A DNA stretch of 64,000 nt from an uncultured Eubacteriales bacterium. Lineage in GTDB: Bacteria; Actinomycetota; Coriobacteriia; Anaerosomatales; PHET01. A model generated the notes under the pieces. The model saw only the letters and a list, made by a program, of their open reading frames with translations. It was not told the DNA's origin and made no database searches. The stretch covers positions 28,572 to 92,571 of the forward strand of contig CAZBLH010000003.1 of NCBI GenBank assembly GCA_964492775.1, given 5' to 3'. The position numbers were made by a program, and so were the translations under genes. Shown here one piece after another: positions 4,529 through 35,980 of this stretch. Position 1 is the first letter of the stretch, and every line of letters begins with the position of its first letter.

Positions 4529-4529
4529 G

Positions 4530-18370: not shown

Positions 18371-18861
18371 CCGTTGACCTTCTCGCGCACGGAGGCAATC
18401 AGCCCGCCGCGCTCGATGATCTCGCGCACGAACGGCGGGAACGGCTGCGCTTGGAACGACTGACCCGTCGTCTCGTTCACGATCATACCGGTGTCGGCGT
18501 CCACGCTCACGCGGTCGCCGGCGGAGATGCCGTCAACTGCGTCGGGCGCCTCCATGATCGGCAGGCCGGTGTTGATGGCGTTGCGATAGAAGATGCGCGC
18601 GAAGCTCTTGGCGATCACAACCGAGACTCCAGCCGCCTTGATCGAGATCGGCGCGTGCTCGCGTGAAGATCCGCAGCCGAAGTTCTCGCCGGCAACGAGG
18701 ATGTCGCCGGACTCGACCTTGGCGACGAACCCCGCGTCGAGGTCCTCCATGCAGTGCTTCGCCAGCTCGGCGGGATCGCTCGTGTTCAGATAGCGGGCCG
18801 GGATGATGACGTCGGTGTCGATGTCACGACCGTACTTGTGCGCGGTACCGGTGAAATTCAC
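18367..18861 (-). CDS. leuD: 3-isopropylmalate/citramalate isomerase small subunit LeuD (short type)
   Basis: Homology starts at [28 protein letters not shown] at 18861 has GGAGCAGGAG 8-10 nt upstream. GCGSSREHA is present. The track ORF (to 19026) is over-extended. Confidence 0.88.
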
Positions 18862-18951
18862 GGTGGGCTCCTGCTCCGAAGGCGCGGTCGGGTTCGCAGG
18901 ATTGTAGCAGTTCAGAACACGCATAGCAGAAGGTCGCGTTAAGATACAGTC

Positions 18952-20115
18952 ATGAGCCCCTCTGCGCTGTTCGTCACGACCGTCCCCATAACGCTTGAAG
19001 CGTTCTTGCTGCCGTTCGCGGACCACTTCCGAACAGCCGGATGGCGCGTCGACGCGCTAGCGACCGCAGCCACCGAGAACCCGCATGTCGCCGGCCACTT
19101 TGACGAAGTATTCGACGCCACCTGGCGCCGCAACCCTCTGGCTCCCGGCAACTTCCTCGGCGCCGGGCCGCTCGTGCGACGAATCGTTCGTGACGGACAG
19201 TACGACATCGTCCACGTGCACACGCCGGTAGCAGCATTCGTCACCAGGCGTGCGTTGCGCAGCCTTCGGCGGGAGCGCTCGGCAAGCGACCGACCGGCGA
19301 TCATCTACACGGCTCACGGCTTCCACTTCTACGAGGGCCAGTCCGCGGCACCGCACGCGCTCTACCGGACGATGGAGCGAACGGCCGCACGCTGGACGGA
19401 CTTCCTCGTCACTATCAACGCCGAGGACTACGCGGCCGCACGCGCGTTCGGGACCATCGATCCCGCCAGGGTGCGTCTCATTCCGGGCATCGGGGTGGAT
19501 CCGGACGTCTACCACCCGGTGCCGCGCGAATCCACCGAGTCCGAGCGAATCCGACGCGAGCTTGGCTTGGCGCCCGAGGCGTTCATGCTCACGATGGTCG
19601 CCGAGATGGCGCCAGTGAAACGTCACGCTCACCTTTTCCGGGCTATCGCACAGGTGCGCGATCCCGGCGTTACGCTCGTCCTCGTCGGCGAGGGGCCGCT
19701 CGAGGTCGAGCTGAAGTCGCTCGCCGAGTCGCTCGGCATAGCTCCAAAGCTCAGATGGGCGGGCTATCGGAGGGACGTGCCGCTCGTGCTCGGCGCGAGC
19801 GATGCGGCGGTGCTCGTCAGCGAACGCGAAGGCCTGCCACGCTTTGTGCTGGAGGCCATGTCTTGCGCGAGGCCGGTCATCGGGACGGACACTCGGGGAA
19901 TTCGCGACGCGATCGGGTCCGATGCCGGATGGGTAGTCCCAAAGCATGACGTCCTGGCGCTAGCTCGAGCGATCGACGAGGCGGCAGGCGCACGCGAAGC
20001 GCGCCGGCGTCGGGGTGGACTCGCCCGCGAGCGGGTCCTCGCGGAGTTCTCCCTCGGCAGGGTGATCGGCGATTACGAGGAGCTATACGATGAAGCGCTC
20101 GCATCGCGCATTTGA
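18952..20115 (+). CDS. Glycosyltransferase family 4 (GT-B, group 1)
   Basis: 387 aa. C-terminal EGLPRFVLEAMSCARPVIGTD is the E-x7-E GT4 signature. This is the first gene of the island, divergent from leuD. Confidence 0.85.
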   Translation: MSPSALFVTTVPITLEAFLLPFADHFRTAGWRVDALATAATENPHVAGHFDEVFDATWRRNPLAPGNFLGAGPLVRRIVRDGQYDIVHVHTPVAAFVTRRALRSLRRERSASDRPAIIYTAHGFHFYEGQSAAPHALYRTMERTAARWTDFLVTINAEDYAAARAFGTIDPARVRLIPGIGVDPDVYHPVPRESTESERIRRELGLAPEAFMLTMVAEMAPVKRHAHLFRAIAQVRDPGVTLVLVGEGPLEVELKSLAESLGIAPKLRWAGYRRDVPLVLGASDAAVLVSEREGLPRFVLEAMSCARPVIGTDTRGIRDAIGSDAGWVVPKHDVLALARAIDEAAGAREARRRRGGLARERVLAEFSLGRVIGDYEELYDEALASRI

Positions 20116-20749
20116 TGTCGTCAAGCGCGTGGGTGACATCGTGGTCTCGGCGCTGGCTCTCGTGCTACTGAGTCCGCTGCTCGCCCTGATCGCCATCGGC
20201 GTCCTCATCACGATCGGAAGTCCTGTGCTCTTCCGGCAGGAGCGGCCCGGCAAGGGCGGACGCATCTTCACCATCTACAAGTTCCGGACGATGCGCGATG
20301 CGCAGGGCGCCACCGGTGCCGCAGCCGTCGACACCGACGCCGAGCGTCTCACGGCCTTCGGCAGACTCTTGCGCGCGAGCTCCCTCGACGAACTGCCGGA
20401 GCTGGTGAACGTGCTCAAGGGAGACATGAGCATCGTCGGCCCTCGGCCACTGCTGCCGGAGTACTTGCCGCGATACAATGAGAGGCAGGCCAGACGACAT
20501 GAGGTTCGGCCGGGAATCACCGGATGGGCGCAGGTCCATGGCAGGAACGCCCTGTCGTGGGAGGAGCGCTTCGAGATGGACGTCGAGTACGTGGACAACC
20601 GCTCGCTCGGGCTGGATCTGCGCATTCTCGCGATGACCGTCAGCACCGTGTTCTCCCGCAAGGGTGTCTCTGCCGAAGGACACGCGACGATGCCGCCGTT
20701 CGATCCCGAGGGCACCTCGACCGCCGATAAGGACGTGAACGCACGATGA
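20090..20749 (+). CDS. Small monotopic phosphoglycosyl transferase (PglC/WecP-like sugar transferase, initiating enzyme)
   Basis: 219 aa. KR..D, SP(L/V)LF.Q.R.G..G..F...KFRTM, DELP and GPRP motifs are typical of the bacterial sugar transferase family. Confidence 0.9.
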   Translation: MKRSHRAFDVVKRVGDIVVSALALVLLSPLLALIAIGVLITIGSPVLFRQERPGKGGRIFTIYKFRTMRDAQGATGAAAVDTDAERLTAFGRLLRASSLDELPELVNVLKGDMSIVGPRPLLPEYLPRYNERQARRHEVRPGITGWAQVHGRNALSWEERFEMDVEYVDNRSLGLDLRILAMTVSTVFSRKGVSAEGHATMPPFDPEGTSTADKDVNAR

Positions 20750-21363
20750 GACTGCTAGTAGTGGGAGCTGGCGGCCATGCGAAGGTCGTGATCGACGCCG
20801 CACGCCTCTGCGGATATGAGATCGCAGGTGTCATCGGCAGTGCAGATGGAACGCCTGAGGTCCTCGGAGCGCCGGTCACGACAGATCCGGCTGGCCTCAA
20901 CGCTTCTGGCTTCATCGTCGCCGTCGGCGACAACCACGAGCGCGCGCGCCTGTTCGCCGAGCACCAGAAGCTGGGACTAGAGCCTGCGAACGTGATTCAT
21001 CCGTCTGCGGTCATCGCTCAGGACGCCGAGCTCGGACCCGGCACGTTCGTGGCGGCCAACGTCACTGTGAACCCGGGAGCTCGCATCGGCAGCAATACGA
21101 TTCTCAACACCGGCTGCACCGTGGACCATGACTGCGAGATCGGCGTGCACGTGCACATCGGCCCCGGTGCCAACCTGTGCGGTGGCGTCGTCGTTGGTGA
21201 GGGAACCCTCCTTGGCGTGGGGTCGTGCGCGGTCCCACGGTCGCGTATCGGCGAGTGGGCCGTCGTCGGCGCAGGCGCCGCAGTGACGCAGAACATCCCC
21301 GACCGCGCCGTCGCGGTGGGCGTGCCCGCACGCGTGACGAGACTCGCGGGGGCGGACCAGTGA
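20746..21363 (+). CDS. NeuD/PglD-family sugar N-acetyltransferase (left-handed beta-helix)
   Basis: 205 aa. N-terminal Rossmann-like LLVVGAGGHAKVV is followed by hexapeptide repeats. The start overlaps the upstream stop. Confidence 0.88.
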   Translation: MRLLVVGAGGHAKVVIDAARLCGYEIAGVIGSADGTPEVLGAPVTTDPAGLNASGFIVAVGDNHERARLFAEHQKLGLEPANVIHPSAVIAQDAELGPGTFVAANVTVNPGARIGSNTILNTGCTVDHDCEIGVHVHIGPGANLCGGVVVGEGTLLGVGSCAVPRSRIGEWAVVGAGAAVTQNIPDRAVAVGVPARVTRLAGADQ

Positions 21364-22580
21364 CTACGGCACTCGCGATTGACGGTGGGGCGCCGGTCAG
21401 GACCACTCCCATGCCGAGGTGGCCGTCGCTCGGCGAGTCCGCTGCCGAGGCGGCTGCGGCGGTAGTCCGTTCGGGGCGCCTCAACTATTGGACCGGCGAT
21501 CGCGGCCGCGAGCTGGAGCGTGAGTACGCGAGCTCGCTCGGGCGGAAGCACGCGGTGGCCGTCGCCAACGGTACCGTGGCACTCGAGCTTGCGCTGCGCG
21601 CATTCGGGATCGGACCCGGTGACGAAGTCATCGTGCCAGCACGCACCTTCATCGCGACAGCCGGCGCCGTCGTAGCAGTCGGCGCTGCTCCCGCGATCGC
21701 CGACATCGACACCACGAGCAACAACCTGACCGCCAACACGGTCTCAGCCGTACTCACCGACCGGACGCGCGCCGTCATCCCGGTCCACCTCGGCGGATGG
21801 CCGGTTGACATGGACCCCATCATCGCGCTCGCCGATGAGCGCGGCCTCATCGTGATCGAGGACTGCGCGCAGGCCCACGGTGGCACGTATCGAGGCCGCC
21901 CCATCGGTTCGCTCGGCAGCCATGCTGCCGCGTTCTCGTTCTGCCAGGACAAGATCCTGCCGGTCGGCGACGGTGGCCTGCTGGTGCTCGACGACGATCT
22001 CGCATTCGATCGCGCTTGGAGCTACAAGGATCAGGGCAAGTCGTTCGCGAAGGTGGAGGCGCTCGACTCGGCTCGGCCGGGTGCAAGCTTTCAGTGGCTT
22101 GTCGACAGCTTCGGCTCCAACCTGCGCTTGGACGAGATCTCGGCCGCGCTCGCGCTTGACAGCCTTGCGCACCTGGACGAATGGCACGCGGCTCGAACCC
22201 GGAACGCCACGCGTGTTGCCGAGGGGCTGCGAGGTGTAGCCGGCATCAGCGTGCCCCTGCCCGAGCCCGGCAGCGAGCACGCGTTCTACCGACTCTACGG
22301 CTCAATCGACCCCGAGGCGCTCGCGGACGGATGGGACCGCGACCGGGTGCTTCAGGCAATCATCGCCGAGGGCGTCCCGGTTCAGTACGGCGCCTGCGCC
22401 GAGATCTACCGCGAGGAGGCGTTCGCACGCGCCGGGCTCGCTCCCGCCGAGCGGCTGCCGGGCGCTGCACGCGCACACGAGACCTCGATCGCGTTCTTCG
22501 TGCATCCGACGCTCGGCGATTCGGACATTGACGACACGGTCGCGGCCGTACGCAAGGTCATGGAGGCTGCGACGCGATGA
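21360..22580 (+). CDS. DegT/DnrJ/EryC1 (PglE-like) sugar aminotransferase
   Basis: Homology starts at VTTALAIDGGAPV. GTG at 21360 overlaps the upstream TGA (GTGA). The track ORF from 21225 is over-extended. AHGG.Y.G...GS and SF...K (PLP Lys) are present. Confidence 0.9.
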   Translation: MTTALAIDGGAPVRTTPMPRWPSLGESAAEAAAAVVRSGRLNYWTGDRGRELEREYASSLGRKHAVAVANGTVALELALRAFGIGPGDEVIVPARTFIATAGAVVAVGAAPAIADIDTTSNNLTANTVSAVLTDRTRAVIPVHLGGWPVDMDPIIALADERGLIVIEDCAQAHGGTYRGRPIGSLGSHAAAFSFCQDKILPVGDGGLLVLDDDLAFDRAWSYKDQGKSFAKVEALDSARPGASFQWLVDSFGSNLRLDEISAALALDSLAHLDEWHAARTRNATRVAEGLRGVAGISVPLPEPGSEHAFYRLYGSIDPEALADGWDRDRVLQAIIAEGVPVQYGACAEIYREEAFARAGLAPAERLPGAARAHETSIAFFVHPTLGDSDIDDTVAAVRKVMEAATR

Positions 22581-24445
22581 GCGTACGGGGACTCTTCGAT
22601 CGCGTCCGCGCAACTGGCCGCCTCTGGAACTCGGCGTTGATCGCGCTCGACCTGGCGGTCGTGGCGCTGGCGACCACCATCGCCTACTACGCACGTTTCG
22701 AGGGCCAAGTACCCGCGGAGTACGCGCGCTTCACGACCGATCTCATCGTAATCTCGTGTGTCTTGTACGTGGCCCTGTTCGCCTTGGTCGGCCTGTACCG
22801 TCTCGTGCTGCGCTACGTCGGCGTCGACACCCTGCTCAAGCTTCTCGGCGCGGTCTTCTTGGGTGCCGTCACGATCCTTGCCGCCAATGTCACCGCCTCG
22901 GATGCCCAAGGACTGCGCCCCGTACCTATCGGCGTCATCTTCATACAGGCAGTGCTGGTCTTCCTCGGCGCTGCAGGCACCCGGCTGGCCGCACGCGTAC
23001 TGCGATACCTGCAGGCTACGCGAGCCGGGTTCGGGCATCGCGTGCTGATCATCGGCGCTGGCAGCGCGGGCTCGCTGCTGCTGCGCGAAATCCAGGAGCA
23101 CCCGTCGCTCGAGCTGTTCGTCGTAGGCTTCCTCGACGACGACCGACGACTCATCGGTCAGACGATCAATGGCGTCCCAGTGATTGGGACCACCAGCGAG
23201 CTCAGGGAGATCGCCGAGCGCTCGCGCATCGAGGAGATCCTCGTCGCGCTACCCTCTGCGCCGAAAGAGACTGTGCGCCGCATCCTCAACACAGCCGCAG
23301 ACATCGGCATACAGACGCGCGTCATGCCGCAAATCGTGATTGCTAAGGGCTCGGTGAGCCTGCGCGACCTGCGAAACGTCGACGTGGAGGACCTGCTCGG
23401 CAGGAAGCCGACGCCCATTGATGTGGACCAGGTGCGCAACACGATCGCCGGCCGCGTGGTTGCCGTGACTGGCGCGGCGGGCTCAATCGGCTCAGAGTTG
23501 TGTCGGCAGATCGTGCGGCTCGACCCCGCCAAGCTCCTGCTTCTGGAGATCGATGAGACGCGCCTCTACGAGCTGTGGCTCGAACTCGAGGGCATGGCCC
23601 CCGGGACGAGCGAGATGCGCGTGTGCGACATCAGAGACACCCGGGCGCTTGACGTCGTATTCGCTGATGACGCGCCCTCGGTCGTTCTGCATGCGGCGGC
23701 ATACAAGCACGTCCCCGTCATGGAGCTCGCGCCCGCCGAGGCGATCAAGACCAACGTCGGCGGCACCCGCAACGTAATCGAGGCCTGCGAGCGGTTTGGG
23801 ACCGAGCGCTTCGTGCTCATCTCCACCGACAAGGCGGTTGCGCCCGTCAACATCATGGGGCTGACCAAGTCCCTTGCCGAGCGGATCATGCTGGATGCGA
23901 CGCGGCGCGGTGGACTGAACGCCGTCGCGGTGCGGTTCGGCAACGTGTTGGCCAGCCGTGGCTCGGTCGTGCCGATCTTTGAGGAGCAGCTGCGCCGCGG
24001 GGGGCCGCTCACCGTCACGCATCCTGAGGTCACGCGGTACTTCATGACGATCCCCGAGGCCGCGCGTCTCGTGCTACAAGCCCAGGCCATCGGCTCCAGC
24101 GGAGACATTTTCGTGCTCGAGATGGGCGAGCCGGTCAAGATCGTCGACCTCGCCAGGAAGATGATCGCGCTGTCAGGCGTGCCGGCCGACATCGCGTTCA
24201 TCGGACTGCGCCCGGGAGAGAAGCTGCACGAGGAGCTCGTCAACGAGTGCGAAGAGCTGCTCCCGACCGAGCGGGAGAAGATTCTGCGGGTCAGACACGT
24301 CGACGTTCTCGGCACCGACCTTGGCAGCCGCATCGATGCGCTCGTCGTGGCCGCCGAGCAAGGCAAGGCCATCGAACTGACACCGCTGATCGATCAGCTC
24401 GAACCAGGATTCTACGATCGGGAGGGCGCGGCGTGCCGAGTGTGA
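22577..24445 (+). CDS. Membrane-bound CapD/PglF-like UDP-GlcNAc 4,6-dehydratase
   Basis: 622 aa. N-terminal TM helices are followed by two Rossmann domains (GAGSAG and VTGAAGSIGSEL). YKH..ME and STDKAV are typical of the Polysacc_synt_2 family. Confidence 0.9.
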   Translation: MSVRGLFDRVRATGRLWNSALIALDLAVVALATTIAYYARFEGQVPAEYARFTTDLIVISCVLYVALFALVGLYRLVLRYVGVDTLLKLLGAVFLGAVTILAANVTASDAQGLRPVPIGVIFIQAVLVFLGAAGTRLAARVLRYLQATRAGFGHRVLIIGAGSAGSLLLREIQEHPSLELFVVGFLDDDRRLIGQTINGVPVIGTTSELREIAERSRIEEILVALPSAPKETVRRILNTAADIGIQTRVMPQIVIAKGSVSLRDLRNVDVEDLLGRKPTPIDVDQVRNTIAGRVVAVTGAAGSIGSELCRQIVRLDPAKLLLLEIDETRLYELWLELEGMAPGTSEMRVCDIRDTRALDVVFADDAPSVVLHAAAYKHVPVMELAPAEAIKTNVGGTRNVIEACERFGTERFVLISTDKAVAPVNIMGLTKSLAERIMLDATRRGGLNAVAVRFGNVLASRGSVVPIFEEQLRRGGPLTVTHPEVTRYFMTIPEAARLVLQAQAIGSSGDIFVLEMGEPVKIVDLARKMIALSGVPADIAFIGLRPGEKLHEELVNECEELLPTEREKILRVRHVDVLGTDLGSRIDALVVAAEQGKAIELTPLIDQLEPGFYDREGAACRV

Positions 24446-26274
24446 CGGAGAGCCGGTCAGCCGCATGGGAACGGGCCTCGTGGCTCGCGTTCCTTGCACT
24501 GTTCGCGGTCACGACCTTGGCCGTCGCCAAGGTTCCCTTCCTGCCGGACACGAACCCGGTCGTCGAGCGCTTCACTGGCCCCGAGTTTTCGGCGCTCACC
24601 GTCTTCACGATCATCGCCGCTATGGCATGGTTCATCAGCTGGATTCTCGGCGAGAGAGCCGCGAGGGTCACCCGAGCGCACCTCGCACTTGCCGCCACGT
24701 GTGTGGTCGGCGTCGCCTCGACGGTCATCGCAGACGTACGACCCCTCGCGCTCGTCGGCGAGAGTGGTCGCTACATGGGCCTTGTGACGTGGTTATGCCT
24801 CGCGGTAACGCTCTTACTCGCCACTCAGCTCGTGCGAACGCCGTCGCGTCTTGGGACTCTCAGCCGAGTGGTCATCATCGTCGGCGTGATCCAGGCGGTC
24901 ATCGGCCTCTCGCAGGTTCTCGGCATCGATATCTTGCGCTTCGACTTCCCTGAGCAGTACCGCTGGATGCTCGCACAGGGCGTGGGCACCGTGGGAAACC
25001 CCAACCAGTACTCCACCACACTCATCGTCCCGTTCATCCTGGCTTGTGCCGAGGCACTGTCGGCAGAATCCCGCCGGTGGCGGTACTTGGCCGTGACGGC
25101 CATGGTCGTCACCGGCATCGCTATCGTCGCTTCGGCCACCCGCGGCACATGGATCGGTGCACTGGTCGGGGCAGTCATCGTCGCGATACTCGCAGTGCGA
25201 TGCCGTCTCGCCCGCGGCAGGGCCATCTGGATCGGGGCAGCCGTTCTGGTAGGCACCGTCGCGCTCGGCTCGCTCCTCGCCGACCCCGCCATCCTCGGCA
25301 CGCGCTTCGATCAGGGCGACGCCAACGGAGGCGCAGCCGTCGAGCAACTGTCGAGTGGCAGACTTGCCCTCTGGCGCCAGGGCGTGGATGTCTTCGGCAG
25401 CCATCCAGTGCTCGGAGTCGGACCCGACTCGATTCGCAACGCCTACAAGGCGGCCGGCCATTCCACTGGAATCAGAGGAGTCTTTACTGACGACCCTCAC
25501 AGCCTGCCGCTACTCGTCGCAGTGTCGTTCGGTGCGGTCGGACTTGGGGCTGCCGCTTGGCTCCTCTGGGCCCTCTTGAGCCAGCCGATGATGCGGGTGA
25601 TCCGCGACCCCAGATCCGCGAAGGGCGAGACTTTCGCGCGCATGAACGCGTGGTTTGCCGGCTCTCTCGCCCTGCTCGTCACGTCTCTCGTGTCCGTGAT
25701 CTCGATTCCGATGATGGTCGCGGTCGCGGTTGCCGTTGGCACCGCTTACGCACCGTTCCTGGCGCGCACCGCCGAGCGAAGGGCGCCCGCATGGAGCACT
25801 GTCGTCGCAGGTGTGCTGCTCATTGGCTTCGCGGGACTCTCCATCTGGGCCTCCCTCGTGCCGCTCTACCACAACGCTCGAATCACGGCCGTGCCGCTTG
25901 AAGTGCCTCTCTCGGAAAACGATCTCGCCGTCCTCCACGCAGCTGACAGCGCGCTGCCGTGGCGCTACGAGATGCTTTCGAGGCGCACGAACAAGATCAT
26001 CGAGCAGGCGTCGTTCGAGTACTCGCAAGGGAGTTCCTCGGCTGCCGAAGCGCGTCTCGCACAGCTGCGAGAGCAGTTGGACCAGCGTGTCCAAGTGTAC
26101 CCTGCCGAGTACTTCGCCTGGTACAACCGTGCGAAAGCATGGGCCGACTCGGCAGCAATCACAGGCGACAGGGAGCTCGGCGCGCAGGCCCGCGATATCA
26201 TCGCCGAAGCGCTAGAGCGCTTCCCTGACGACCTCGAGCTCATGGCCTTGTCGATCACCGCGCGCGGGCTATGA
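24433..26274 (+). CDS. Wzy_C (O-antigen ligase-like) polytopic membrane protein with C-terminal helical-repeat (TPR-like) domain
   Basis: In-frame GTG at 24433 (or 24442) overlaps the PglF-like stop. The Wzy_C core is SATRGTWIGALVG...GRLALWRQG...HPVLGVGPDS...DPHSLPLL. The last 150 aa or so are soluble and helical. Confidence 0.8.
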   Translation: MPSVTESRSAAWERASWLAFLALFAVTTLAVAKVPFLPDTNPVVERFTGPEFSALTVFTIIAAMAWFISWILGERAARVTRAHLALAATCVVGVASTVIADVRPLALVGESGRYMGLVTWLCLAVTLLLATQLVRTPSRLGTLSRVVIIVGVIQAVIGLSQVLGIDILRFDFPEQYRWMLAQGVGTVGNPNQYSTTLIVPFILACAEALSAESRRWRYLAVTAMVVTGIAIVASATRGTWIGALVGAVIVAILAVRCRLARGRAIWIGAAVLVGTVALGSLLADPAILGTRFDQGDANGGAAVEQLSSGRLALWRQGVDVFGSHPVLGVGPDSIRNAYKAAGHSTGIRGVFTDDPHSLPLLVAVSFGAVGLGAAAWLLWALLSQPMMRVIRDPRSAKGETFARMNAWFAGSLALLVTSLVSVISIPMMVAVAVAVGTAYAPFLARTAERRAPAWSTVVAGVLLIGFAGLSIWASLVPLYHNARITAVPLEVPLSENDLAVLHAADSALPWRYEMLSRRTNKIIEQASFEYSQGSSSAAEARLAQLREQLDQRVQVYPAEYFAWYNRAKAWADSAAITGDRELGAQARDIIAEALERFPDDLELMALSITARGL

Positions 26275-27382
26275 TCCTCGCAGTGTCTTCGCTGCGCGCG
26301 TACCAGCTGCACTCGGCTTCGGCATAGCGCCGACCGTTCGCCCCCAACTCGGCGGCGAGACCCGGAGAGCCTGCCAGCTGCGCGACCGCCCTGGCGAGCG
26401 CCTCAGGGTCACGCTGGGGCACGATCAGCCCTGCTCGGTTGTCGCGGACGACCTCGGTGAGTCCGGGCATCCCGTCTGTGGCGATCACGGGAGTACCCGA
26501 AGCCATCGATTCGTAGAGCTTGAGTGGCGAGATGCCCGCCTCGGAGAACTCATCGGCTTCTTTGTTCACGAGCGAGACGAGCGCGTGCGCGACAACGCCG
26601 GCGATCTGGTCATAGGGCAGCGTGCCGAGGTAGACGACGCGCGAATCGGTCCGAGCAGCCTCCTCGACCTCGGCCCGCTTCGTTCCCTGCCCCACGATCA
26701 AGAGTGAGACGTCCTGGGGCCACTCAGGCCTCCGAACAGCCTCCAAACTGGTGGATATTCCCTGCCACGGCGCGAACGAGCCAAAGAACACGGCGTAGCG
26801 CCCTGGAACGACGATTCCTTCCGGTATCTCCTCGTCGGGGTTGAAGATCTCCGTGTTCGCGCCGTTGGGGACGATGTCTGCGACGACTCCAGTCTCACGC
26901 AACAGCCACTCGGCAAGCCCGCTCGACCCGGCGATCACGGCGTCCGCTCGGCGGAACTGGGTATAGGTGAGCCACCTGATGAGCGGAGCGAACAGGCGCG
27001 CCGACGGCCACGCGATGAAGAAGTCGTCCACGATACCGTTGCACTCCTGGACGACCGTGACGCCTCTGCGACGAGCGCCCTCCGAAGCCCACCAGGCGAG
27101 CGCATGACCGCGCACGTAGAGCACATCGTACCGGTCCATCGCATCGAGTACCCTGCGCTGGACTCGGGCGAACTCGAGAACCCGCCCGATTGCCCCCGGC
27201 GCCTCCTTGCCCGCGTATGAAGGCTCGAAGAGATCGACTGCTGCGCCCTGTTTTCGAAGGCCGCTGATGATCTCGTGAACGTGTGCGTACGATGCCTGAC
27301 CCGGTGTGGTCGCCTGCAGGCAGAGGTAGGCGATCCTGATTCCTGCGACCGGGGAGGCGTCGATCGGCGCCGGACCAACCAT
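26255..27382 (-). CDS. Glycosyltransferase family 4
   Basis: Starts at MVGPAPIDA (ATG 27382, TGATG junction with the upstream gene). The track ORF is over-extended to 27664. The GT4 E-x7-E region is SPLKLYESMASGTPVIATD. It is a paralog of 44137..45261. Confidence 0.85.
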   Translation of the reverse strand: MVGPAPIDASPVAGIRIAYLCLQATTPGQASYAHVHEIISGLRKQGAAVDLFEPSYAGKEAPGAIGRVLEFARVQRRVLDAMDRYDVLYVRGHALAWWASEGARRRGVTVVQECNGIVDDFFIAWPSARLFAPLIRWLTYTQFRRADAVIAGSSGLAEWLLRETGVVADIVPNGANTEIFNPDEEIPEGIVVPGRYAVFFGSFAPWQGISTSLEAVRRPEWPQDVSLLIVGQGTKRAEVEEAARTDSRVVYLGTLPYDQIAGVVAHALVSLVNKEADEFSEAGISPLKLYESMASGTPVIATDGMPGLTEVVRDNRAGLIVPQRDPEALARAVAQLAGSPGLAAELGANGRRYAEAECSWYARSEDTARIIARAR

Positions 27383-28227
27383 CACACCCTCCCCGTCTGC
27401 GCCATGCGCCGCCTGATCGGGATGCCCCAGCGGTGCCAGCGAAGCGCGAGCTTCAGCCGATACCTGCGAATCGCCTTGCGGGCGAGATCGGTCTCCCGCT
27501 GGTCTAGCATACCCTCGGCGATCAGGTACTCGATGATCTCGATGTGTGAGCGCCAGACCGCTGCGACATCGTCGCTCACCCGGTTGGGCGCGTCTTGGTA
27601 GTAGAGAAAAACAGGCTCCGGCAGGTGATGGTGAGTCGCACCCATCGCCACAGCGCGCATCCACAGATCGATGTCTTCCGAGCGCGATTCCGGTCTTGGG
27701 CCTCCGGTCATCTCAAACACTCCGCGCGTCATCACCGCACTCGTACCGATGAGCAGCCCCGAGAGCATGTCGCCGATGGAGAGTGACGACTCCTCTTGGA
27801 ACACCGGCGCGGTGTAGTAGTAGACACGGCGCCCGTCAGCGAACACCTGGTAGCCGTTGGTGCTCACGATCTCGGCGTCAGGGTGCTTGCCGAAGAACGC
27901 CTCGACCTTCTCGAGGTACTCAGGCGTGAACGCATCATCAGCATCGAGCCGCGCGAAGAGCTCGCCTCGCGCCTGCTGCATCGCCTCGATGCGCGAAGCC
28001 GTCACCCCGCGGTGCGCACACGCGTACACCCGGATGCGTACATCCTGCTCGGCGTAGGAACGCGCCAGCGCGAGCGTGCCGTCGGTGGAGCCGTCGTCGA
28101 TGATGATGTGCTCCCAGTCGTCGAACGCCTGAGCAAGCACGGACTCGATGGCGCGCGAGAGGGTGCGCTCGGCGTTGTACGCCGGCGTGAGGACCGAGAA
28201 ACGTGGTGCCTTCTCCCGCTCGGCCAC
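27382..28227 (-). CDS. Glycosyltransferase family 2
   Basis: FSVLTPAYNAERTL...IIDDGSTDGT...DADD is a GT2 signature. GTG at 28227 is preferred (GGAGGAAGGAG 5 nt upstream, no overlap with the upstream gene). The ORF extends to 28377. Confidence 0.82.
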   Translation of the reverse strand: MAEREKAPRFSVLTPAYNAERTLSRAIESVLAQAFDDWEHIIIDDGSTDGTLALARSYAEQDVRIRVYACAHRGVTASRIEAMQQARGELFARLDADDAFTPEYLEKVEAFFGKHPDAEIVSTNGYQVFADGRRVYYYTAPVFQEESSLSIGDMLSGLLIGTSAVMTRGVFEMTGGPRPESRSEDIDLWMRAVAMGATHHHLPEPVFLYYQDAPNRVSDDVAAVWRSHIEIIEYLIAEGMLDQRETDLARKAIRRYRLKLALRWHRWGIPIRRRMAQTGRV

Positions 28228-28264
28228 CGATGCTCCTTCCTCCGGTTGCTGGCTACGCGCTTCC

Positions 28265-30235
28265 TCACCGGAAGACTCGGGCGAGACGCCGAGCCGCACT
28301 CGTGGCATATCGCCTGAGAACACGGGCAGCTGCGCGCACATCTCTCGCCTTAGGCACCAGGATGTCAGCATATCCAAAACCGCTTTCGCGTTTCATCAGG
28401 TACACGATGACCGCCGAATAGATGCAGTACGTCGTGCTCGACGCCAGTGCAGCACCCATGATGCCGAATCGCGGGATCACTATGAGGTTCGCTACGGCGT
28501 TCAGCACGACCATCACCGCCGAGGTGCGCCAGTAGATCACCTCACGCGAGAACAGGTAGGAGCTCGGCACCTCGGAGATGCTCATCGCGGCCACTCCGGG
28601 CAGGAGCGCCAGAAGGACCGGACCCGCCTCAGCGAACGTCGGTCCGAACACGACAGGCACGAGCATGGGCCCGAAAAGCGCAAAGACCGCGACGATGCCG
28701 AGCACGAGCAGCACCGTGAGTCTCGAGACGCCCGCCGACAGCGCCGAGCCCTCGTCGCGACCCACCTGCGATGCGCGCGCGAAGAGTGCCGAGCCCAGAA
28801 CGACAGGAATGTAGCGCGCCACCTCGGCAAGGCTCGTCGAGACCGAGTACACGCCCACGGCGGCCTGCCCGGCAAGCCACCCGAGGATCAGCATGTCCTG
28901 GCGAAGGTGCAGGTAGCCCACGAGCGACACGAAATACGACTTCGCTGAGTAGCCCACCATCGCGCGCATCGCGCCGAGGTCGAGCCGCCAGCCGGTCATC
29001 ATCCGACCGCGCTCAAGCAAGAGAAGGACGGCCGATGCAACCGCCTGCCCGAGCACGCCGAGCGAAACCATGAACAGCGCCGAAAGCAACCCGGCTTGCC
29101 ACAGGACGAACGCGCCCATGAGCACGAGAGTGACCGAGCTGATGCCCGCTATCGCCTGCGGACGCAGGCCCGAGAGTCCGATCGCAATGGCACCGAGCCA
29201 GGCGAAGAGCGTTGTCGTCACGAACAGCACCGCAGCCACGAGCGCCATGGCCAGCGAGTACGGCGGATCGGGCGCAAGAGGTCCGGTGATGACGAGCAGG
29301 CAGGCGATGGTTGCCGCGAGGCCCGTGACGCCGGTGAGCAGGACGCTGTTCGCCACAGCAGAGCCCGGGGTGACCTCTCTGCGCGCCACGAAGTAGACGT
29401 TCGATGTGGACAGCCCGAGCCCGAGCACGACGACGAGCACGCCCACGATCTGCTGAACGAGCGCGTACCCACCCTTGCCGACCGGCCCCAGCGCCCGTGC
29501 GAGAATGACGCCGATGAGGAAGTTCACGGCTACTGTGACGAACTTTGCGGCCAGGCCCCACGCAGTGGAAGCACCGAGTCGATGTCGACGAGGGCGCGCC
29601 GTCTGAGCGAGCGCCGCCACAGGAATCTCCGCCGGATCGAGCTCGTCCATGGTGACGAACGCCGCGCCTTGCGCAATGAGCTCGTCCAGGATTCCCGGCA
29701 GTGCCTCCGCTGTGACCTCAGGCCAACTGTGCAGCAGCACGATCAGGCTACCGCTGCCCGCGGCAGCGCGTTCGGAGTGCGCCGCGACCACGCGGCTGGC
29801 GAGCTGATCGGCCGTCGAACCCTGCTCCCAGTCGAGGCTGTCGAGGTGCCAGCCGATCTGCCGGTAGCCTGCTGCCTCGATGTGCGACAGTACCTGCGAA
29901 TCGAATGCTCCCGAGTTCTGCGGGCAGCGGAAGTACGGGCGCGGCGACTGGCCCGTTGCGCGCTCAATCGCCTCCTCGGCGCGTTTGACCTCGCTCCGAA
30001 GCTCCGCTTCTGTGATCTGGCCGGGAAGCGCGTGCGAGTAGGTGTGATTGCCGACGCGATGGCCATCGCGCGTCAGTCGCGCTGCAAGCTCGGGGTTCGC
30101 CTCGGCCCACTCGCCCTGGAGGAAGAAGGTGGCCACGACGCCACGCTCGGCGAGTACCTCGATGATCCGCTCCGCCACCGCAGGGTCATGCCCGTGCGGT
30201 GCAGGCTCGACATCGAAGGTGAGCGCTACCTTCAT
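28265..30235 (-). CDS. Fusion protein: N-terminal polysaccharide deacetylase (NodB/CE4) + C-terminal Wzx-type (MOP) flippase
   Basis: 656 aa. Residues 1 to about 200 are ALTFDVEP...GNHTYSH...LLHSW (CE4 motifs), with no signal peptide. Residues from about 215 to the end have about 12 TM helices with polysaccharide-biosynthesis-protein (Wzx) similarity. This part is clearly paralogous to 47962..49347. Confidence 0.85.
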   Translation of the reverse strand: MKVALTFDVEPAPHGHDPAVAERIIEVLAERGVVATFFLQGEWAEANPELAARLTRDGHRVGNHTYSHALPGQITEAELRSEVKRAEEAIERATGQSPRPYFRCPQNSGAFDSQVLSHIEAAGYRQIGWHLDSLDWEQGSTADQLASRVVAAHSERAAAGSGSLIVLLHSWPEVTAEALPGILDELIAQGAAFVTMDELDPAEIPVAALAQTARPRRHRLGASTAWGLAAKFVTVAVNFLIGVILARALGPVGKGGYALVQQIVGVLVVVLGLGLSTSNVYFVARREVTPGSAVANSVLLTGVTGLAATIACLLVITGPLAPDPPYSLAMALVAAVLFVTTTLFAWLGAIAIGLSGLRPQAIAGISSVTLVLMGAFVLWQAGLLSALFMVSLGVLGQAVASAVLLLLERGRMMTGWRLDLGAMRAMVGYSAKSYFVSLVGYLHLRQDMLILGWLAGQAAVGVYSVSTSLAEVARYIPVVLGSALFARASQVGRDEGSALSAGVSRLTVLLVLGIVAVFALFGPMLVPVVFGPTFAEAGPVLLALLPGVAAMSISEVPSSYLFSREVIYWRTSAVMVVLNAVANLIVIPRFGIMGAALASSTTYCIYSAVIVYLMKRESGFGYADILVPKARDVRAAARVLRRYATSAARRLARVFR

Positions 30236-31158
30236 GACCGGCCGCCTCTGCGCATGGTGAGCGACGCAACCCGAGCGGCGACCGGCCGCAAGGCATTTGA
30301 GCTCACATGCATGGCTTCAGAAACCCACTCGCCGGCTCGCTCGCCAAGTACCCGGGCCACGGCGTTCTTGACCGCGGTGCGCCGCAGGTAGATCCACTCG
30401 TCCTGCCGAGCGCGCGCGATCGCCGCGCGCGCCGCCACTGCCTGTTCCGGCGAGAAGGTCCCGTCGTCGATCAGGCGCTGGTAGATGGCGAGCCGCGACT
30501 CGAACAGCTTCACGACATCGGCCGTCATCTGACACTCGCTCGCGTAGAACACCGCAAGCATCTGCGGCGTGTAGCGGTGCCGAGCGCCGGACGCGAGCGC
30601 CCGCAACCAGAAATCGACGTCCTCACAGTAGACGTCGGGCCGGATGCCGCCGACCCGCTCGAACAGCTCCCGCGAGAAGACGGCGATCGTGAAGATGTGC
30701 GTGGCCTGAAGCATCTCCTCGAGCGTGAACGAGCGCTCGACCTGGTAGAACGCGCCAGGCCTCGCGAGCCGGCGCGTGCCATCAGGGTTAACGTGCCATC
30801 CGTTGCAGCTGTAGATGTCGTAACCCGGCCTCGCCCGGATGAACTCGTCCATCCGGGCGAGGTATTCGGGCAGCAGTTCGTCGTCGGCGTCGAACCGGAC
30901 GACGTACTCGCCGCTGGACACGCGCACGGCGGTGTCCCGGGCGGCTCCGCACCCGGCGTTTTCCTGGCGCACGAGCCGGATGCGGCCGTCACGCTCGGCG
31001 TACGCCGACACAACCTCGGCGGTAGCGTCGACCGAGCCGTCGTCGGTGACGACGAGCTCCCAGTCCTCGAAGGTCTGCGCGAGGACGCTGTCGAGCGCAC
31101 GCGGGAGCGTCGCGGCCGCATTGAATGCGGGCATCGCTATCGAGAAGCGCGGGCTCAC
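30232..31158 (-). CDS. Glycosyltransferase family 2
   Basis: 308 aa. FSIAMPAFNAA...VVTDDGSVD...FDADD. 4-nt overlaps at both ends. Confidence 0.85.
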   Translation of the reverse strand: MSPRFSIAMPAFNAAATLPRALDSVLAQTFEDWELVVTDDGSVDATAEVVSAYAERDGRIRLVRQENAGCGAARDTAVRVSSGEYVVRFDADDELLPEYLARMDEFIRARPGYDIYSCNGWHVNPDGTRRLARPGAFYQVERSFTLEEMLQATHIFTIAVFSRELFERVGGIRPDVYCEDVDFWLRALASGARHRYTPQMLAVFYASECQMTADVVKLFESRLAIYQRLIDDGTFSPEQAVAARAAIARARQDEWIYLRRTAVKNAVARVLGERAGEWVSEAMHVSSNALRPVAARVASLTMRRGGRS

Positions 31159-32144
31159 GGGCGCCGCCCTTTGCGGCGAGCTCGCTCGGCAAGCGCGATC
31201 CTAAGCGGTTGCACGATGCCTTTGACCCGGTTCGCAGCCCGGATCACCGAATCCCCGGCGCGCCTGCCGAACACGCGGTAGACGCCGGCCTTGAAACGCC
31301 TGGCCTGGGCATCCGTGTACTCGGCGACGGTCGTGCCGTCCTCCTCGAGCTGACGAATGCGCTCACGGAACCGCTCGATCGACTTGGTGGCAAGCGCCTT
31401 CTCGCGCTCGCCGAACGTCCCGTCGGCAGAGAGTTCCTCGAGAATGTCGATGTAGGACAGGAACGACGGAATCGGGTCCTCATTCATCCGGCCGGACAGC
31501 TCCATCGTGTACAGGTAGATGTGCTCGGGCACGTAGCGGTGCCTCGCGCCAGCCGCGAGCGCGCGCAGCCACAGGTCGTAGTCCTCGCAGCGCACGTGAG
31601 GCCGAAAGCCACCCAGGCGCTCGAGAGTGCTACGACGGATCGTGGCCGCGCCACCAAAGATCCAGCAGTCCTCGATGAGATCGTCGACCGTGAGTGAGAG
31701 CGAGCGCAGATACTTCGGGTCGTTCAGAGCCTCTCGCCGGGTGCCGTCTGGGTAGACCTTGTAGCCCGTCGCCGAGTAGATGTCGTAGCCCGGCTCCGCA
31801 TCGATTGCGCTCGAGAGCACCGAGAGCGCGTCAGGAGTCAGGGCGTCGTCAGCGTCAATCTTCGTGACGAACTCCCCGCAGGCGACGGCCGCTCCCGCCT
31901 GGCGCGCTCCCGCACATCCGGCGTTTCGCTGCGTGAGCACGCTCACTCGCTGGTCGGTGCGCTCCCACCCGCGCGCGATCGACAACGTGTCGTCCGCCGA
32001 GCCGTCGTCGACCACGATGAGCTCGAAGTCCCGGCAGCTCTGCGACAACACGCTTTCGACTGCCCGCGCAAGCGTCCCTGCGGCGTTGTACGCGGGCATT
32101 ACCAGCGAGAAGCGCGGCGAGGAGCCGTGGTCGGATGCGGTCAC
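31155..32144 (-). CDS. Glycosyltransferase family 2
   Basis: 329 aa. FSLVMPAYNAAGTL...IVVDDGSADDT...IDADD. It is a paralog of the neighbouring GT2. Confidence 0.85.
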   Translation of the reverse strand: MTASDHGSSPRFSLVMPAYNAAGTLARAVESVLSQSCRDFELIVVDDGSADDTLSIARGWERTDQRVSVLTQRNAGCAGARQAGAAVACGEFVTKIDADDALTPDALSVLSSAIDAEPGYDIYSATGYKVYPDGTRREALNDPKYLRSLSLTVDDLIEDCWIFGGAATIRRSTLERLGGFRPHVRCEDYDLWLRALAAGARHRYVPEHIYLYTMELSGRMNEDPIPSFLSYIDILEELSADGTFGEREKALATKSIERFRERIRQLEEDGTTVAEYTDAQARRFKAGVYRVFGRRAGDSVIRAANRVKGIVQPLRIALAERARRKGRRP

Positions 32145-33991: not shown

Positions 33992-34069
33992 ATTCTACCG
34001 CACGAACAGGCGTTTTCGGGTATCGAGTGGTAACATGAGAAGGTTAGACTGGCCGGCTAGGAGTCGCCC

Positions 34070-35977: not shown

Positions 35978-35980
35978 CTG

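Follow-up and report, generated by a model that had tools for sequence, protein, structure and literature searches.

Within the 64-kb stretch of DNA that we analysed (hereafter the window; GC content 62-70%), six plus-strand genes at 18952-26274 are all joined by overlaps of start and stop codons and form an operon with a four-gene sugar module in its middle. The sequence-only reading had described the module as four consecutive, overlapping genes at 20090-24445, which is borne out by open reading frames, domain matches, and nearest solved structures, but the coupled unit is larger than these four genes and comprises:

18952..20115, + strand: GT4a, a GT4 glycosyltransferase and first gene of the operon (Glycos_transf_1 3e-30, Glyco_transf_4 3e-14)
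20090..20749, + strand: small monotopic phosphoglycosyl transferase of PglC/EpsL type (Pfam Bac_transf 9e-66)
20746..21363, + strand: N-acetyltransferase of the PglD/NeuD family with left-handed beta-helix (PglD_N 2.8e-13 plus Hexapep)
21360..22580, + strand: PLP-dependent sugar C4 aminotransferase of Pcryo_0638 type (DegT_DnrJ_EryC1 1.7e-85)
22577..24445, + strand: membrane-bound UDP-GlcNAc 4,6-dehydratase of PglF/WbpM/EpsC type (Polysacc_synt_2 1.2e-105 plus CoA_binding_3)
24433..26274, + strand: WzyC1, a 13-helix WaaL-like membrane protein and last gene of the operon (Wzy_C 4e-18)

The 3' end of the GT4a gene overlaps the transferase gene by 26 nt, the junctions inside the module read ATGA, GTGA, and ATGA in this order, and the WzyC1 start (GTG at 24433 or 24442) overlaps the dehydratase stop codon. 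For the aminotransferase, the longest open reading frame begins at 21225, while the GTG at 21360 suits the N-terminus of the family and overlaps the acetyltransferase stop. By sequence comparison, the E-values of the four module genes against protein families and their nearest solved structures lie far beyond chance, and domain searches revealed no second initiating transferase elsewhere in the 64-kb window.

The solved structure nearest to the phosphoglycosyl transferase is PglC of C. concisus (8G1N; 5e-62, 53% identity), and alignment with this enzyme shows that the Ser-Pro helix break, the Asp-Glu dyad, PRP, and E117 are retained. The aromatic box is complete (Y118, Y122, W150, F154, and F197) and a C-terminal extension is present, a combination of box and long C-terminus that constitutes the UDP-diNAcBac fingerprint according to Anderson et al. 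(PMC10186338). We compared 35 phosphoglycosyl transferases adjoining PglF-type dehydratases in 80 genomes and found the box in the seven that are most similar to the enzyme of the window (52-62% identity) and in none of the remaining 28; in five of these seven cases, a gene for a PglD-type acetyltransferase directly follows. In diNAcBac transferases, conservation of the aromatic box goes together with that of a GLLLP motif in the mobile loop. Each of the seven other box-type enzymes keeps this motif exactly or with one substitution, whereas G-A-A-A-V with a two-residue insertion takes its place in the window and in the 76% identical transferase of a related genome (L085). In addition, the salt-bridge residue Lys196 is a proline in the window.

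The acetyltransferase scores 212.5 bits against TIGR03570 (the NeuD/PglB/VioB family; NCBIfam cut-off 160.8) and retains the catalytic His-Asp of the "VDHDC" motif. Its best solved match is the GDP-perosamine acetyltransferase PerB (3e-42, 42% identity), and it also matches the acetyltransferase domain of Neisseria PglB (3e-29, 37% identity), C. jejuni PglD (2e-26, 30% identity), and Pcryo_0637 (1.6e-10). Acetyltransferases encoded beside box-type transferases in five other genomes behave similarly, with PerB scoring above PglD in all five and above both PglB and PglD in four. The aminotransferase had been read as PglE-type, a label that does not hold: C. jejuni PglE matches at 2e-18 only, while the nearest solved structure is Pcryo_0638 (7L7X; 2.5e-108, 45% identity). 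Ten of the 12 named active-site residues of Pcryo_0638 are identical, including K185, Q183, and W9-P10, the Gln contacting the C2 acetamido group is retained, and both changes (Y229 to Phe and F335 to Gln) lie in the uracil pocket. Pcryo_0638 is a characterised bacillosamine-pathway enzyme acting on the same substrate as PglE, though the authors of its study warn that alignments do not allow ligand binding to be predicted within this family (PMC8040287). The aminotransferase of the window would be expected to perform the same job as PglE or EpsN without being a PglE orthologue. Finally, the dehydratase has four N-terminal hydrophobic helices, aligns with C. jejuni PglF as its nearest solved structure (5BJU; 8.7e-73 over 329 residues), and conserves the "ISTDKAV...NIMGxTK" motif, i.e., the T-D-K and M...K of PglF.

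Nearest solved structures and residue conservation thus support the proposed enzymology of PglF, aminotransferase, PglD, and PglC type, and at the level of sequence they demonstrate family membership and the retention of catalytic and fingerprint residues in the module enzymes. The module most likely makes a UDP-2,4-diacetamido-2,4,6-trideoxyhexose and loads it onto undecaprenyl phosphate as the reducing-end sugar. That this sugar is UDP-diNAcBac or a close variant appears well supported because the dyad and aromatic box, a Pcryo_0638-like aminotransferase, and the PglF T-D-K are all kept; C4 stereochemistry and acyl group are not readable from sequence, and the exact sugar is inferred. QuiNAc4NAc, previously offered as an alternative pathway, is actually the same sugar as diNAcBac.

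A different product, i.e., the C4 epimer (2,4-diacetamido-2,4,6-trideoxygalactose, which is N-acetylated FucNAc4N/AATGal) or a differently N-acylated bacillosamine, would account for the divergent mobile loop of the transferase by a different substrate. The loss of GLLLP in the window and L085 but in none of the seven other box-type enzymes, the proline at K196, and the two uracil-pocket substitutions of the aminotransferase are consistent with this idea, as is the caution about predicting ligands by alignment. However, we consider it unlikely, given that the aromatic box is complete and that an enzyme producing the gluco-configured 4-amine is, with a lead of 180 bits, the closest characterised relative of the aminotransferase. 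Moreover, the 4-amine stays free in the FucNAc4N pathway of B. fragilis PSA, yet the module includes a PglD-type acetyltransferase. It is more improbable still, to the point of being nearly negligible, that acetyltransferase and aminotransferase belong to GDP-perosamine (4-amino-4,6-dideoxymannose) synthesis, an idea prompted by PerB as the nearest structure of the former and by hits of perosamine synthetases to the latter (ca. 1e-49): the aminotransferase scores 366 bits against Pcryo_0638 and 170 against perosamine synthetases and keeps the Gln for the C2 acetamido group, the coupled dehydratase is of the UDP-GlcNAc PglF type with no gene for a GDP-mannose 4,6-dehydratase found in the window, and acetyltransferases in clear diNAcBac contexts elsewhere likewise score higher with PerB than with PglD.

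The operon is the front part of a 17-kb, Wzx-dependent glycan locus reaching to position 35977, which encodes five glycosyltransferases, three Wzy_C proteins resembling WaaL, and a fusion of deacetylase and flippase. Downstream of the operon, it contains:

26255..27385, - strand: GT4b, a GT4 glycosyltransferase (Glycos_transf_1 and Glyco_transf_4 matches)
27382..28227, - strand: GT2a, a GT2 glycosyltransferase (Glycos_transf_2 3.3e-32; GTG start at 28227)
28265..30235, - strand: N-terminal NodB-type polysaccharide deacetylase fused to a Wzx/MOP flippase (Polysacc_deac_1 4.9e-28 over residues 2-126, Polysacc_synt, Polysacc_synt_3)
30232..31158, - strand: GT2b, a GT2 glycosyltransferase (Glycos_transf_2 1.4e-33; start/stop overlaps with its neighbours)
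31155..32144, - strand: GT2c, a GT2 glycosyltransferase (Glycos_transf_2 1.2e-29)
32141..33991, - strand: WzyC2, a Wzy_C membrane protein and first gene of the minus-strand operon (Wzy_C 3.1e-8)
34070..35977, + strand: WzyC3, a Wzy_C membrane protein with C-terminal TPR domain (Wzy_C 1.1e-16 plus TPR_9 8.6e-11)

GT4b starts with GTG at 27385, preceded by a GGGGAGGG ribosome-binding site and overlapping the GT2a stop. The Wzy_C proteins have no sequence matches among solved proteins and resemble WaaL by fold alone, and the PglL_A motif (PF15864) is undetected in all four Wzy_C proteins of the window, the fourth being 446 aa long, even at E<=1. WzyC1 (identical to the 613-aa protein P0001) gave an AF2 model with pLDDT 83 and pTM 0.87, for which the best Foldseek match is WaaL (7TPG; 5e-5, TM 0.57 on target); residues 495-612 of the model resemble TPR folds, and from the placement of Lys and Arg among the loops this domain is predicted to be extracytoplasmic. 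WzyC3 is paralogous to WzyC1 over the full length (27% identity), and WzyC2 ends in a helical tail of about 160 aa.

The nearest genome match is an Actinomycetota MAG. The earlier suggestion of a monoderm host remains plausible in light of this match, of a surface protein with RCC1, Big_5, and three CWB2 repeats encoded at 57781-60411, and of the absence of outer-membrane markers among the genes of the window. Orthologues in related genomes include GT4b (58-72% identity in L082-L087), GT2a (66-79%), the deacetylase-flippase fusion (63-77% in L082, L083, L085, and L086), and WzyC2 (55-57% in L082, L083, and L086; 40% in the Actinomycetota MAG L022, where its gene lies between dehydratase and cytochromes). 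The position of WzyC3 is conserved in L082, L083, and L086, always with a multihaem cytochrome gene after it. GT4a accompanies the dehydratase in L085 (77% identity) and L082 (59%). L084, L086, and L087 have the rest of the locus without the sugar module, so the downstream genes can do without it; as judged from these gene contents, the module behaves as a cassette that varies between relatives, while the locus carrying it, next to multihaem cytochromes, is conserved. Further afield, the order transferase, acetyltransferase, aminotransferase, and dehydratase recurs in Thermus scotoductus and a Chloroflexia MAG (L002 and L056), and the same four genes are found in other arrangements in a Bacillota MAG (L049), a Balneolaceae MAG (L071), and Fictibacillus fluitans (L034).

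The bacillosamine-type pathway itself is already well known, and we consider it probable that the six-gene coupled operon starts a surface glycan with such a sugar. The membrane-bound dehydratase would convert UDP-GlcNAc into UDP-4-keto-6-deoxy-GlcNAc, which the Pcryo_0638-type aminotransferase would turn into UDP-4-amino-4,6-dideoxy-GlcNAc and the PglD-family acetyltransferase into UDP-diNAcBac. The PglC-type transferase would then put diNAcBac-1-phosphate onto undecaprenyl phosphate. GT4a is a candidate for the second step, extending Und-PP-diNAcBac by analogy to PglA/EpsD, with the extension presumably continued by the four glycosyltransferases that the convergent operon encodes. The deacetylase-Wzx fusion may de-N-acetylate the lipid-linked glycan before flipping it, and outside the cell WzyC1, WzyC2, and WzyC3 would polymerise it, attach it to the final acceptor, or do both; WzyC1 itself could function as polymerase, ligase, or O-oligosaccharyltransferase.

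The glycan had been proposed to decorate proteins or an S-layer and not to form a capsule, which is not established and cannot be derived from the four genes because the same module, EpsC/N/M/L, primes a biofilm exopolysaccharide in B. subtilis (PMC10653937). By this reading, secreted proteins (S-layer or surface proteins and possibly the adjacent multihaem cytochromes) would receive the diNAcBac-primed oligosaccharide en bloc on Ser, Thr, or Tyr from at least one WaaL-like, TPR-bearing Wzy_C protein acting as O-oligosaccharyltransferase. The translational coupling of WzyC1 to the module, its WaaL-like fold with predicted outward TPR domain, and the same architecture in WzyC3 fit this proposal, as Wzy_C with C-terminal TPR is the architecture reported for PglL and for P. 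alvei WsfB, an S-layer O-oligosaccharyltransferase (PMC2943079). It further agrees with a set of three Wzy_C proteins that is conserved in relatives beyond the needs of a lone polymerase, the lack of a lipid A-core acceptor for a WaaL-type ligase in monoderms, the failure to find Wzz/BY-kinase and LCP genes in the 64-kb window, and the multihaem cytochrome genes adjoining the locus in the window, L022, L082, L083, and L086. Nevertheless, we regard it as possible but doubtful: the outward TPR tail of the WzyC1 model is only suggestive, polysaccharide export scaffolds also use TPR domains, the PglL_A motif is missing, the likeness to WaaL is one of fold, and the analysis yielded no acceptor protein or sequon.

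Moreover, Wzx, Wzy_C, and five glycosyltransferases are a standard set for polysaccharide repeat units, and with the initiating transferase they provide the full toolkit for a Wzx/Wzy-dependent wall polysaccharide, i.e., a secondary cell wall polymer or a capsule-like or exopolysaccharide that Wzy_C proteins would polymerise and ligases encoded elsewhere would attach to peptidoglycan. We give this alternative a chance somewhat short of even. The B. subtilis system is a precedent for diNAcBac-primed exopolysaccharide in a monoderm, and a front cassette that varies while the rest of the locus is conserved is reminiscent of the way serotype polysaccharides diversify. A CWB2-anchored surface protein calls for a secondary wall polymer made by some locus, and the glycan could be such a ligand; in C. 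difficile, CWB2 modules bind the secondary wall polymer PSII. However, a second glycan cluster (44137-54495) lies nearer to the CWB2 gene and could make this polymer instead, chain-length regulator, BY-kinase, and LCP ligase were not found within the 64 kb, and it would be unusual for polymerases to occur as a conserved trio of 600-aa Wzy_C proteins with additional C-terminal domains. The hints from the gene neighbourhood thus seem to point both ways, and sequence does not decide between protein and wall polysaccharide as the end point.

Among known systems, Campylobacter PglF/PglE/PglD/PglC (N-linked) and Neisseria PglD/PglC/PglB (O-linked) have the four chemical steps and folds in common with the window, including a PglC-like transferase with dyad and aromatic box and an acetyltransferase of the PglD/PglB family. 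Unlike them, the window has an aminotransferase that is not orthologous to PglE, a transferase without GLLLP loop, neither a PglB (STT3) N-oligosaccharyltransferase nor a PglL_A motif, and downstream Wzx, five glycosyltransferases, and three WaaL-like proteins instead of the pgl glycosyltransferase set, all in a high-GC, probably monoderm, uncultured lineage. The Psychrobacter cryohalolentis enzymes Pcryo_0612/0638/0637 make QuiNAc4NAc for an LPS O-antigen in a diderm (PMC8040287); Pcryo_0638 and its counterpart in the window would share the substrate UDP-4-keto-6-deoxy-GlcNAc, while the acetyltransferase is PglD/PerB-like and not Pcryo_0637-like. WaaL of Cupriavidus metallidurans, whose lipid A-core acceptor is absent from monoderms, shares with WzyC1 an Arg and a His in a large outside loop (R310 and H356, invariant in the alignment A1), but the two are only 17% identical, and WzyC1 carries an additional transmembrane helix and a TPR domain that is predicted to lie outside. 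Paenibacillus alvei WsfB and Neisseria PglL are similar by their reported architecture of a Wzy_C membrane domain with C-terminal TPR motif, and the Wzy_C genes of the window also lie inside a glycan locus of a probable monoderm like those of the S-layer O-oligosaccharyltransferases WsfB and Geobacillus WsaB, though without PglL_A motif and with no adjacent S-layer gene found. The B. subtilis eps operon, compared by description, likewise embeds a membrane-bound dehydratase and an aminotransferase, together with a PglD-type acetyltransferase and a small transferase of the box type, in a larger polysaccharide operon of a monoderm. It differs in gene order, in having EpsA/B (a chain-length and kinase module), and in lacking the Wzy_C-TPR trio, while its GT4 enzyme EpsD extends Und-PP-diNAcBac in the same role that we propose for GT4a.

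The four genes that the sequence-only reading had described as consecutive and start/stop-overlapping are indeed four ORFs on the + strand joined by ATGA, GTGA, and ATGA junctions, and Pfam and TIGR matches agree with the enzyme type that it had proposed for each of them. At the level of sequence, the family assignments are unambiguous:

20090-20749, + strand: transferase (small monotopic phosphoglycosyl transferase), Bac_transf 9e-66
20746-21363, + strand: acetyltransferase, PglD_N 2.8e-13 plus Hexapep, TIGR03570 212.5 bits (cut-off 160.8 bits)
21360-22580, + strand: aminotransferase, DegT_DnrJ_EryC1 1.7e-85
22577-24445, + strand: dehydratase, Polysacc_synt_2 1.2e-105 plus CoA_binding_3

The aminotransferase ORF at its longest opens at 21225, and we prefer the GTG start at 21360, from which the N-terminus reads 'VTTALAIDGGAPVR...PRWP' and the alignment with the closest homologue begins at residue 1 of that homologue. 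Upstream of the module, the glycosyltransferase gene GT4a (18952-20115) shares 26 nt with the start of the transferase gene. Downstream, the start of the Wzy_C membrane protein WzyC1 (GTG 24433 or 24442) spans the dehydratase stop at 24445, and the gene ends at 26274; a recorded protein of 613 aa is identical to WzyC1 from the 24433 start. The overlaps at either end of the module therefore give a six-gene coupled operon. Base composition (66-67% GC in the module vs 65% in the flanks) holds no hint of recent acquisition, shuffled sequence did equally well in promoter and terminator scans of 18300-36500, and there were no tRNA or Rfam matches in the window.

The transferase is 53% identical to Campylobacter concisus PglC (8G1N; 5e-62) and has a single long hydrophobic segment with a Ser-Pro inside it. 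Its helix break (Ser23-Pro24), catalytic dyad (Asp93-Glu94), PRP motif, and Glu117 are retained, the aromatic box is complete (Y118, Y122, W150, F154, and F197, five of five), and its C-terminus extends 15 residues past F197. Aromatic box and long C-terminus together have been described as the fingerprint of enzymes using UDP-diNAcBac, i.e., the UDP-linked 2,4-diacetamido-2,4,6-trideoxyhexose of the bacillosamine type (Anderson et al. 2023, PMC10186338). As a control, we took 80 genome loci from the matches listed, each centred on a PglF-like dehydratase; together they contain 35 phosphoglycosyl transferases. Box and C-terminal extension were present in only seven of these, namely those closest to the window transferase (52-62% identity), with a PglD-type acetyltransferase directly after the transferase in five of the seven cases; the aromatic box is missing from all of the remaining 28. 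The same study found a GLLLP mobile-loop motif (G71-P75) to be co-conserved in diNAcBac-specific small monotopic phosphoglycosyl transferases, and it described an E117-K196 salt bridge (PMC10186338). Here, the GLLLP loop is replaced by G-A-A-A-V with two inserted residues; E117 is retained, but position 196 is a proline.

This variant loop (20300-20340, transferase residues 70-85) is Ala/Val-rich, two residues longer than the GLLLP loop, and accompanied by the full aromatic box. It recurs in the 76% identical transferase of a related contig (L085, 275-961), while the loop of Thermus and Bacillota relatives reads G-x-L/P-L-P. Here, the two published fingerprint motifs may have become uncoupled in nature and, because the box is kept and the GLLLP loop lost, the locus is a natural test case for the diNAcBac fingerprint.

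The aminotransferase has its best match among solved structures in 7L7X (2.5e-108, 366 bits, 45% identity), with the runner-up at 183 bits. That best match is Pcryo_0638 from Psychrobacter cryohalolentis, which acts on UDP-4-keto-6-deoxy-GlcNAc en route to 2,4-diacetamido-2,4,6-trideoxy-D-glucose (PMC8040287). Ten of the 12 residues named for Pcryo_0638 are identical, including K185 (Schiff base), Q183 (which reads the C2 acetamido group), D156, S180, T60, N239, and Trp9-cisPro10; the two substitutions are Tyr229 to Phe and Phe335 to Gln. By homology, the enzyme would thus be a PLP-dependent C4 aminotransferase acting on UDP-4-keto-6-deoxy-GlcNAc. Its match to Campylobacter jejuni PglE reaches only 2e-18, and we therefore expect it to do the job of PglE without being its orthologue.

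The dehydratase aligns with C. jejuni PglF (5BJU) across 329 residues (8.7e-73), and its 'ISTDKAV..NIMGLTK' stretch matches 'ISTDKAV..NIMGCTK' of PglF, with Thr-Asp-Lys kept and Met...Lys in place of Tyr...Lys. With four hydrophobic helices at the N-terminus and a Polysacc_synt_2 SDR domain, it shows the features of membrane-bound retaining UDP-GlcNAc 4,6-dehydratases. Similarly, the acetyltransferase has those of the PglD family of acetyl-CoA-dependent N-acetyltransferases, in which a PglD_N domain is joined to a left-handed beta-helix, including the catalytic His-Asp pair aligned with H141/D142 of the GDP-perosamine N-acetyltransferase PerB. Among solved structures, it is most similar to PerB (42% identity), followed by the acetyltransferase domain of Neisseria PglB (37%) and C. 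jejuni PglD (30%).

This ranking bears on the possibility, raised by the sequence-only reading, that the acetyltransferase groups with a different 4-amino sugar pathway. We therefore compared PerB and PglD scores for five acetyltransferases from other genomes (Thermus, Fictibacillus, and one MAG each of Bacillota, Balneolaceae, and Chloroflexia), each of which has a box-type transferase and a PglF-type dehydratase as its neighbours. PerB outscored C. jejuni PglD in five out of five of these diNAcBac contexts and was the top match in four, so that the resemblance to PerB is a trait of this branch of the family and does not point to a perosamine pathway. A GDP-perosamine pathway was rejected for this reason and also because the aminotransferase matches Pcryo_0638 best and the window lacks a GDP-mannose dehydratase gene. 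Specificity of the acetyltransferase for a UDP- rather than a GDP-linked sugar is suggested by the operon context and by this score comparison in other genomes.

Taken together, the complete aromatic box, the Pcryo_0638-type aminotransferase, the PglF-like Thr-Asp-Lys, and the PglD-family acetyltransferase make the proposed bacillosamine-type priming chemistry well supported: the predicted product is UDP-diNAcBac or a very close variant, loaded onto undecaprenyl phosphate. Of the PglF-PglE-PglD-PglC signature that had been claimed, the PglF, PglD-family, and PglC types stand, while the aminotransferase is not a PglE orthologue. The priming pathway itself is well known and widespread, and the locus is a solid functional annotation rather than a discovery. 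A scan of genome contigs confirmed at least 596 relatives of the dehydratase; Thermus scotoductus and a Chloroflexia MAG share the order transferase-acetyltransferase-aminotransferase-dehydratase, and other arrangements of the four genes are found in Bacillota and Balneolaceae. What the locus does is carry this well-studied module into a high-GC, uncultured lineage that is rich in multihaem cytochromes and probably both monoderm and a member of the Actinomycetota.

The six-gene operon meets a converging minus-strand operon that runs from 33991 down to 26255 with overlapping start and stop codons, in the order WzyC2, GT2c, GT2b, a NodB-deacetylase/Wzx-flippase fusion, GT2a, and GT4b. A third Wzy_C gene, WzyC3 (34070-35977), diverges from WzyC2. 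Upstream in the window lie leuD, leuB, ilvE, leuA, dnaE, and his genes; in a related contig (L087), a gene for a class A penicillin-binding protein sits between leuB and leuD. Further features of the surroundings are:

16265-17227, - strand: protein with a lysylphosphatidylglycerol-synthase-type transmembrane domain, interrupting the run of leucine/branched-chain amino-acid genes
28265-30235, - strand: deacetylase-Wzx fusion with an N-terminal NodB-type polysaccharide deacetylase lacking a signal peptide, 63-77% identity in relatives
35981-41733: four genes for membrane-anchored and secreted multihaem c-type cytochromes with 5-7, 11, 12, and 12-14 haem-binding motifs, directly after WzyC3
41939-44101, - strand: NHL-repeat beta-propeller protein and TPR protein, both membrane-anchored, between the cytochromes and a second glycan cluster
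44137-54495: second glycan cluster with three GT4, one GT2, a fourth Wzy_C protein (446 aa), a second Wzx, a radical-SAM enzyme, a methyltransferase, and a deacetylase
57781-60411, - strand: surface protein of 876 aa with seven RCC1 repeats, two Big_5 domains, and three CWB2 (cell-wall-binding) repeats
61005-63983, - strand: LytTR-type response regulator, histidine kinase, and phosphonate-type periplasmic binding protein at the 3' end of the window

The architecture of the fusion protein suggests that de-N-acetylation of the lipid-linked glycan may be coupled to flipping. No initiating phosphoglycosyl transferase is encoded in the second glycan cluster, and the one at 20090 is the only one found within the window. 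The response regulator and kinase group could possibly regulate the region of surface-protein and glycan genes. Multihaem cytochromes are also encoded at 54590-56599, in the related contig L022 at 2833-5038, and at the ends of the related contigs L082, L083, and L086; those at 38386-39750 and 39982-41733 have a large paralogous domain in common.

About a dozen homologues of WzyC1 are detectable, and the contigs of its relatives (L082-L087, a small uncultured lineage) contain a conserved locus that always starts directly after leuD. Its layout is a variable front module followed by WzyC1, the block of GT4b, GT2a, deacetylase-Wzx, GT2b, GT2c, and WzyC2, then WzyC3 with its TPR domain, and a multihaem cytochrome, with 46-82% identity between orthologues of the conserved genes. 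The front module comprises GT4a, transferase, acetyltransferase, aminotransferase, and dehydratase in the window and in L085. L083 has acetyltransferase, aminotransferase, and dehydratase plus an additional Wzy_C gene, and L082 has GT4a, the dehydratase, and a UDP-GlcNAc 2-epimerase-family gene, with no aminotransferase, acetyltransferase, or initiating transferase seen. In L084, L086, and L087, the front position holds no sugar module. Since the front module varies while the rest stays fixed, the glycan locus is conserved and the bacillosamine module is an exchangeable cassette on it. Among the matches listed, a single genome comes close in its dehydratase (69% identity), L022, an Actinomycetota MAG in which the dehydratase gene is directly followed by a WzyC2-like gene and then two cytochrome genes. 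Adjacency of a Wzy_C gene and a cytochrome gene is kept in four related contigs (L022, L082, L083, and L086), i.e., the link between glycan locus and cytochrome genes is conserved across relatives.

The Wzy_C (PF04932) scores of WzyC1, WzyC2, and WzyC3 are 4e-18, 3e-8, and 1e-16, respectively, and the outside-loop residues R237, R310, and H356 are invariant in the alignment examined. Neither domain nor Arg/Arg/His discriminates an oligosaccharyltransferase, because WaaL ligases and many Wzy polymerases have both. When the three sequences were compared with all PDB chains, designed TPR proteins matching WzyC3 were the sole hits, and none of these was relevant. In its AlphaFold (AF2) model (pLDDT 83, pTM 0.87), WzyC1 has 13 membrane helices, four of them following the large catalytic loop. 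The sole significant membrane-protein match of the model is WaaL (7TPG, 5e-5), and the C-terminal 120 residues (495-612 of the model) match TPR domains with a probability of about 1. The distribution of Lys/Arg in the loops of the model would place this TPR domain on the outside of the cell. WzyC3 is a full-length paralogue of WzyC1 with the same layout (TPR_9 8.6e-11), and a C-terminal TPR domain of the PglL/WsfB type is thus found in both WzyC1 (in the model) and WzyC3.

Where the glycan ends up can be read in more than one way. That it becomes a wall polysaccharide or exopolysaccharide comes close to an even chance in our judgment: a single locus combines an initiating transferase, glycosyltransferases, a Wzx flippase, and a candidate Wzy-type polymerase, i.e., the complete toolkit for a repeat-unit glycan, which at the same time speaks against a pathway dedicated to proteins. 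Moreover, the triple-CWB2 surface protein carries a monoderm-type anchor, which implies a secondary cell wall polymer as its ligand. In Clostridioides difficile, CWB2-type anchors bind the secondary wall polymer, and a wall polysaccharide must therefore be made somewhere. However, the ORFs annotated in the 64-kb window include neither a chain-length regulator (Wzz/PCP or BY-kinase) nor an LCP ligase, which fits transfer of the glycan to proteins better, though such genes may be encoded in another part of the genome.

Protein glycosylation is a more tentative reading, and we think that it could well be wrong. It gains from the WaaL fold of the WzyC1 model with its TPR tail predicted outside, from the paralogous WzyC3, and from the fact that a WaaL ligase would miss its lipid A-core acceptor in a monoderm. 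Yet TPR domains serve polysaccharide export scaffolds too, no acceptor protein came to light, and none of the four Wzy_C proteins matches the PglL_A motif (PF15864) at E<=1. This motif, by which PglL can be told from WaaL (Schulz et al. 2013, PMC3643930), is based solely on PglL proteins of Gram-negatives. The remaining probability lies with other fates or with a glycan that goes to both proteins and polysaccharide.

A more far-reaching proposal, which we consider unlikely, is that the conserved trio of WaaL-like enzymes with outward TPR domains forms a general O-glycosylation system whose targets would be surface proteins, among them the secreted multihaem cytochromes encoded next to it, with the diNAcBac cassette as one of several interchangeable priming modules. 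If true, the extracellular electron-transfer machinery of a Gram-positive cell wall would be tied to protein glycosylation, and TPR-bearing WaaL-like enzymes acting as O-oligosaccharyltransferases would provide new tools for glycoengineering and indicate glycosylated electron-transfer proteins. Literature searches on glycosylated multihaem cytochromes in Gram-positives, multihaem cytochromes in Actinobacteriota, and bacillosamine in actinobacterial wall polymers turned up nothing useful. The points to retain are the loop variant of the transferase, the exchange of the front module in the manner of a cassette, the conservation of three WaaL-like proteins, two of them TPR-tailed, and their conserved position next to multihaem cytochromes.

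The sequence-only reading had favoured protein or S-layer glycosylation rather than a capsule, a choice that the four-gene signature cannot decide: B. subtilis, a monoderm, has the same module in EpsC/N/M/L and uses it to prime exopolysaccharide (PMC10653937), which supports the wall polysaccharide or exopolysaccharide reading. In favour of protein glycosylation, both the S-layer O-oligosaccharyltransferase WsfB and PglL are reported to combine Wzy_C with a C-terminal TPR domain (PMC2943079), and WzyC1 and WzyC3 are built alike.
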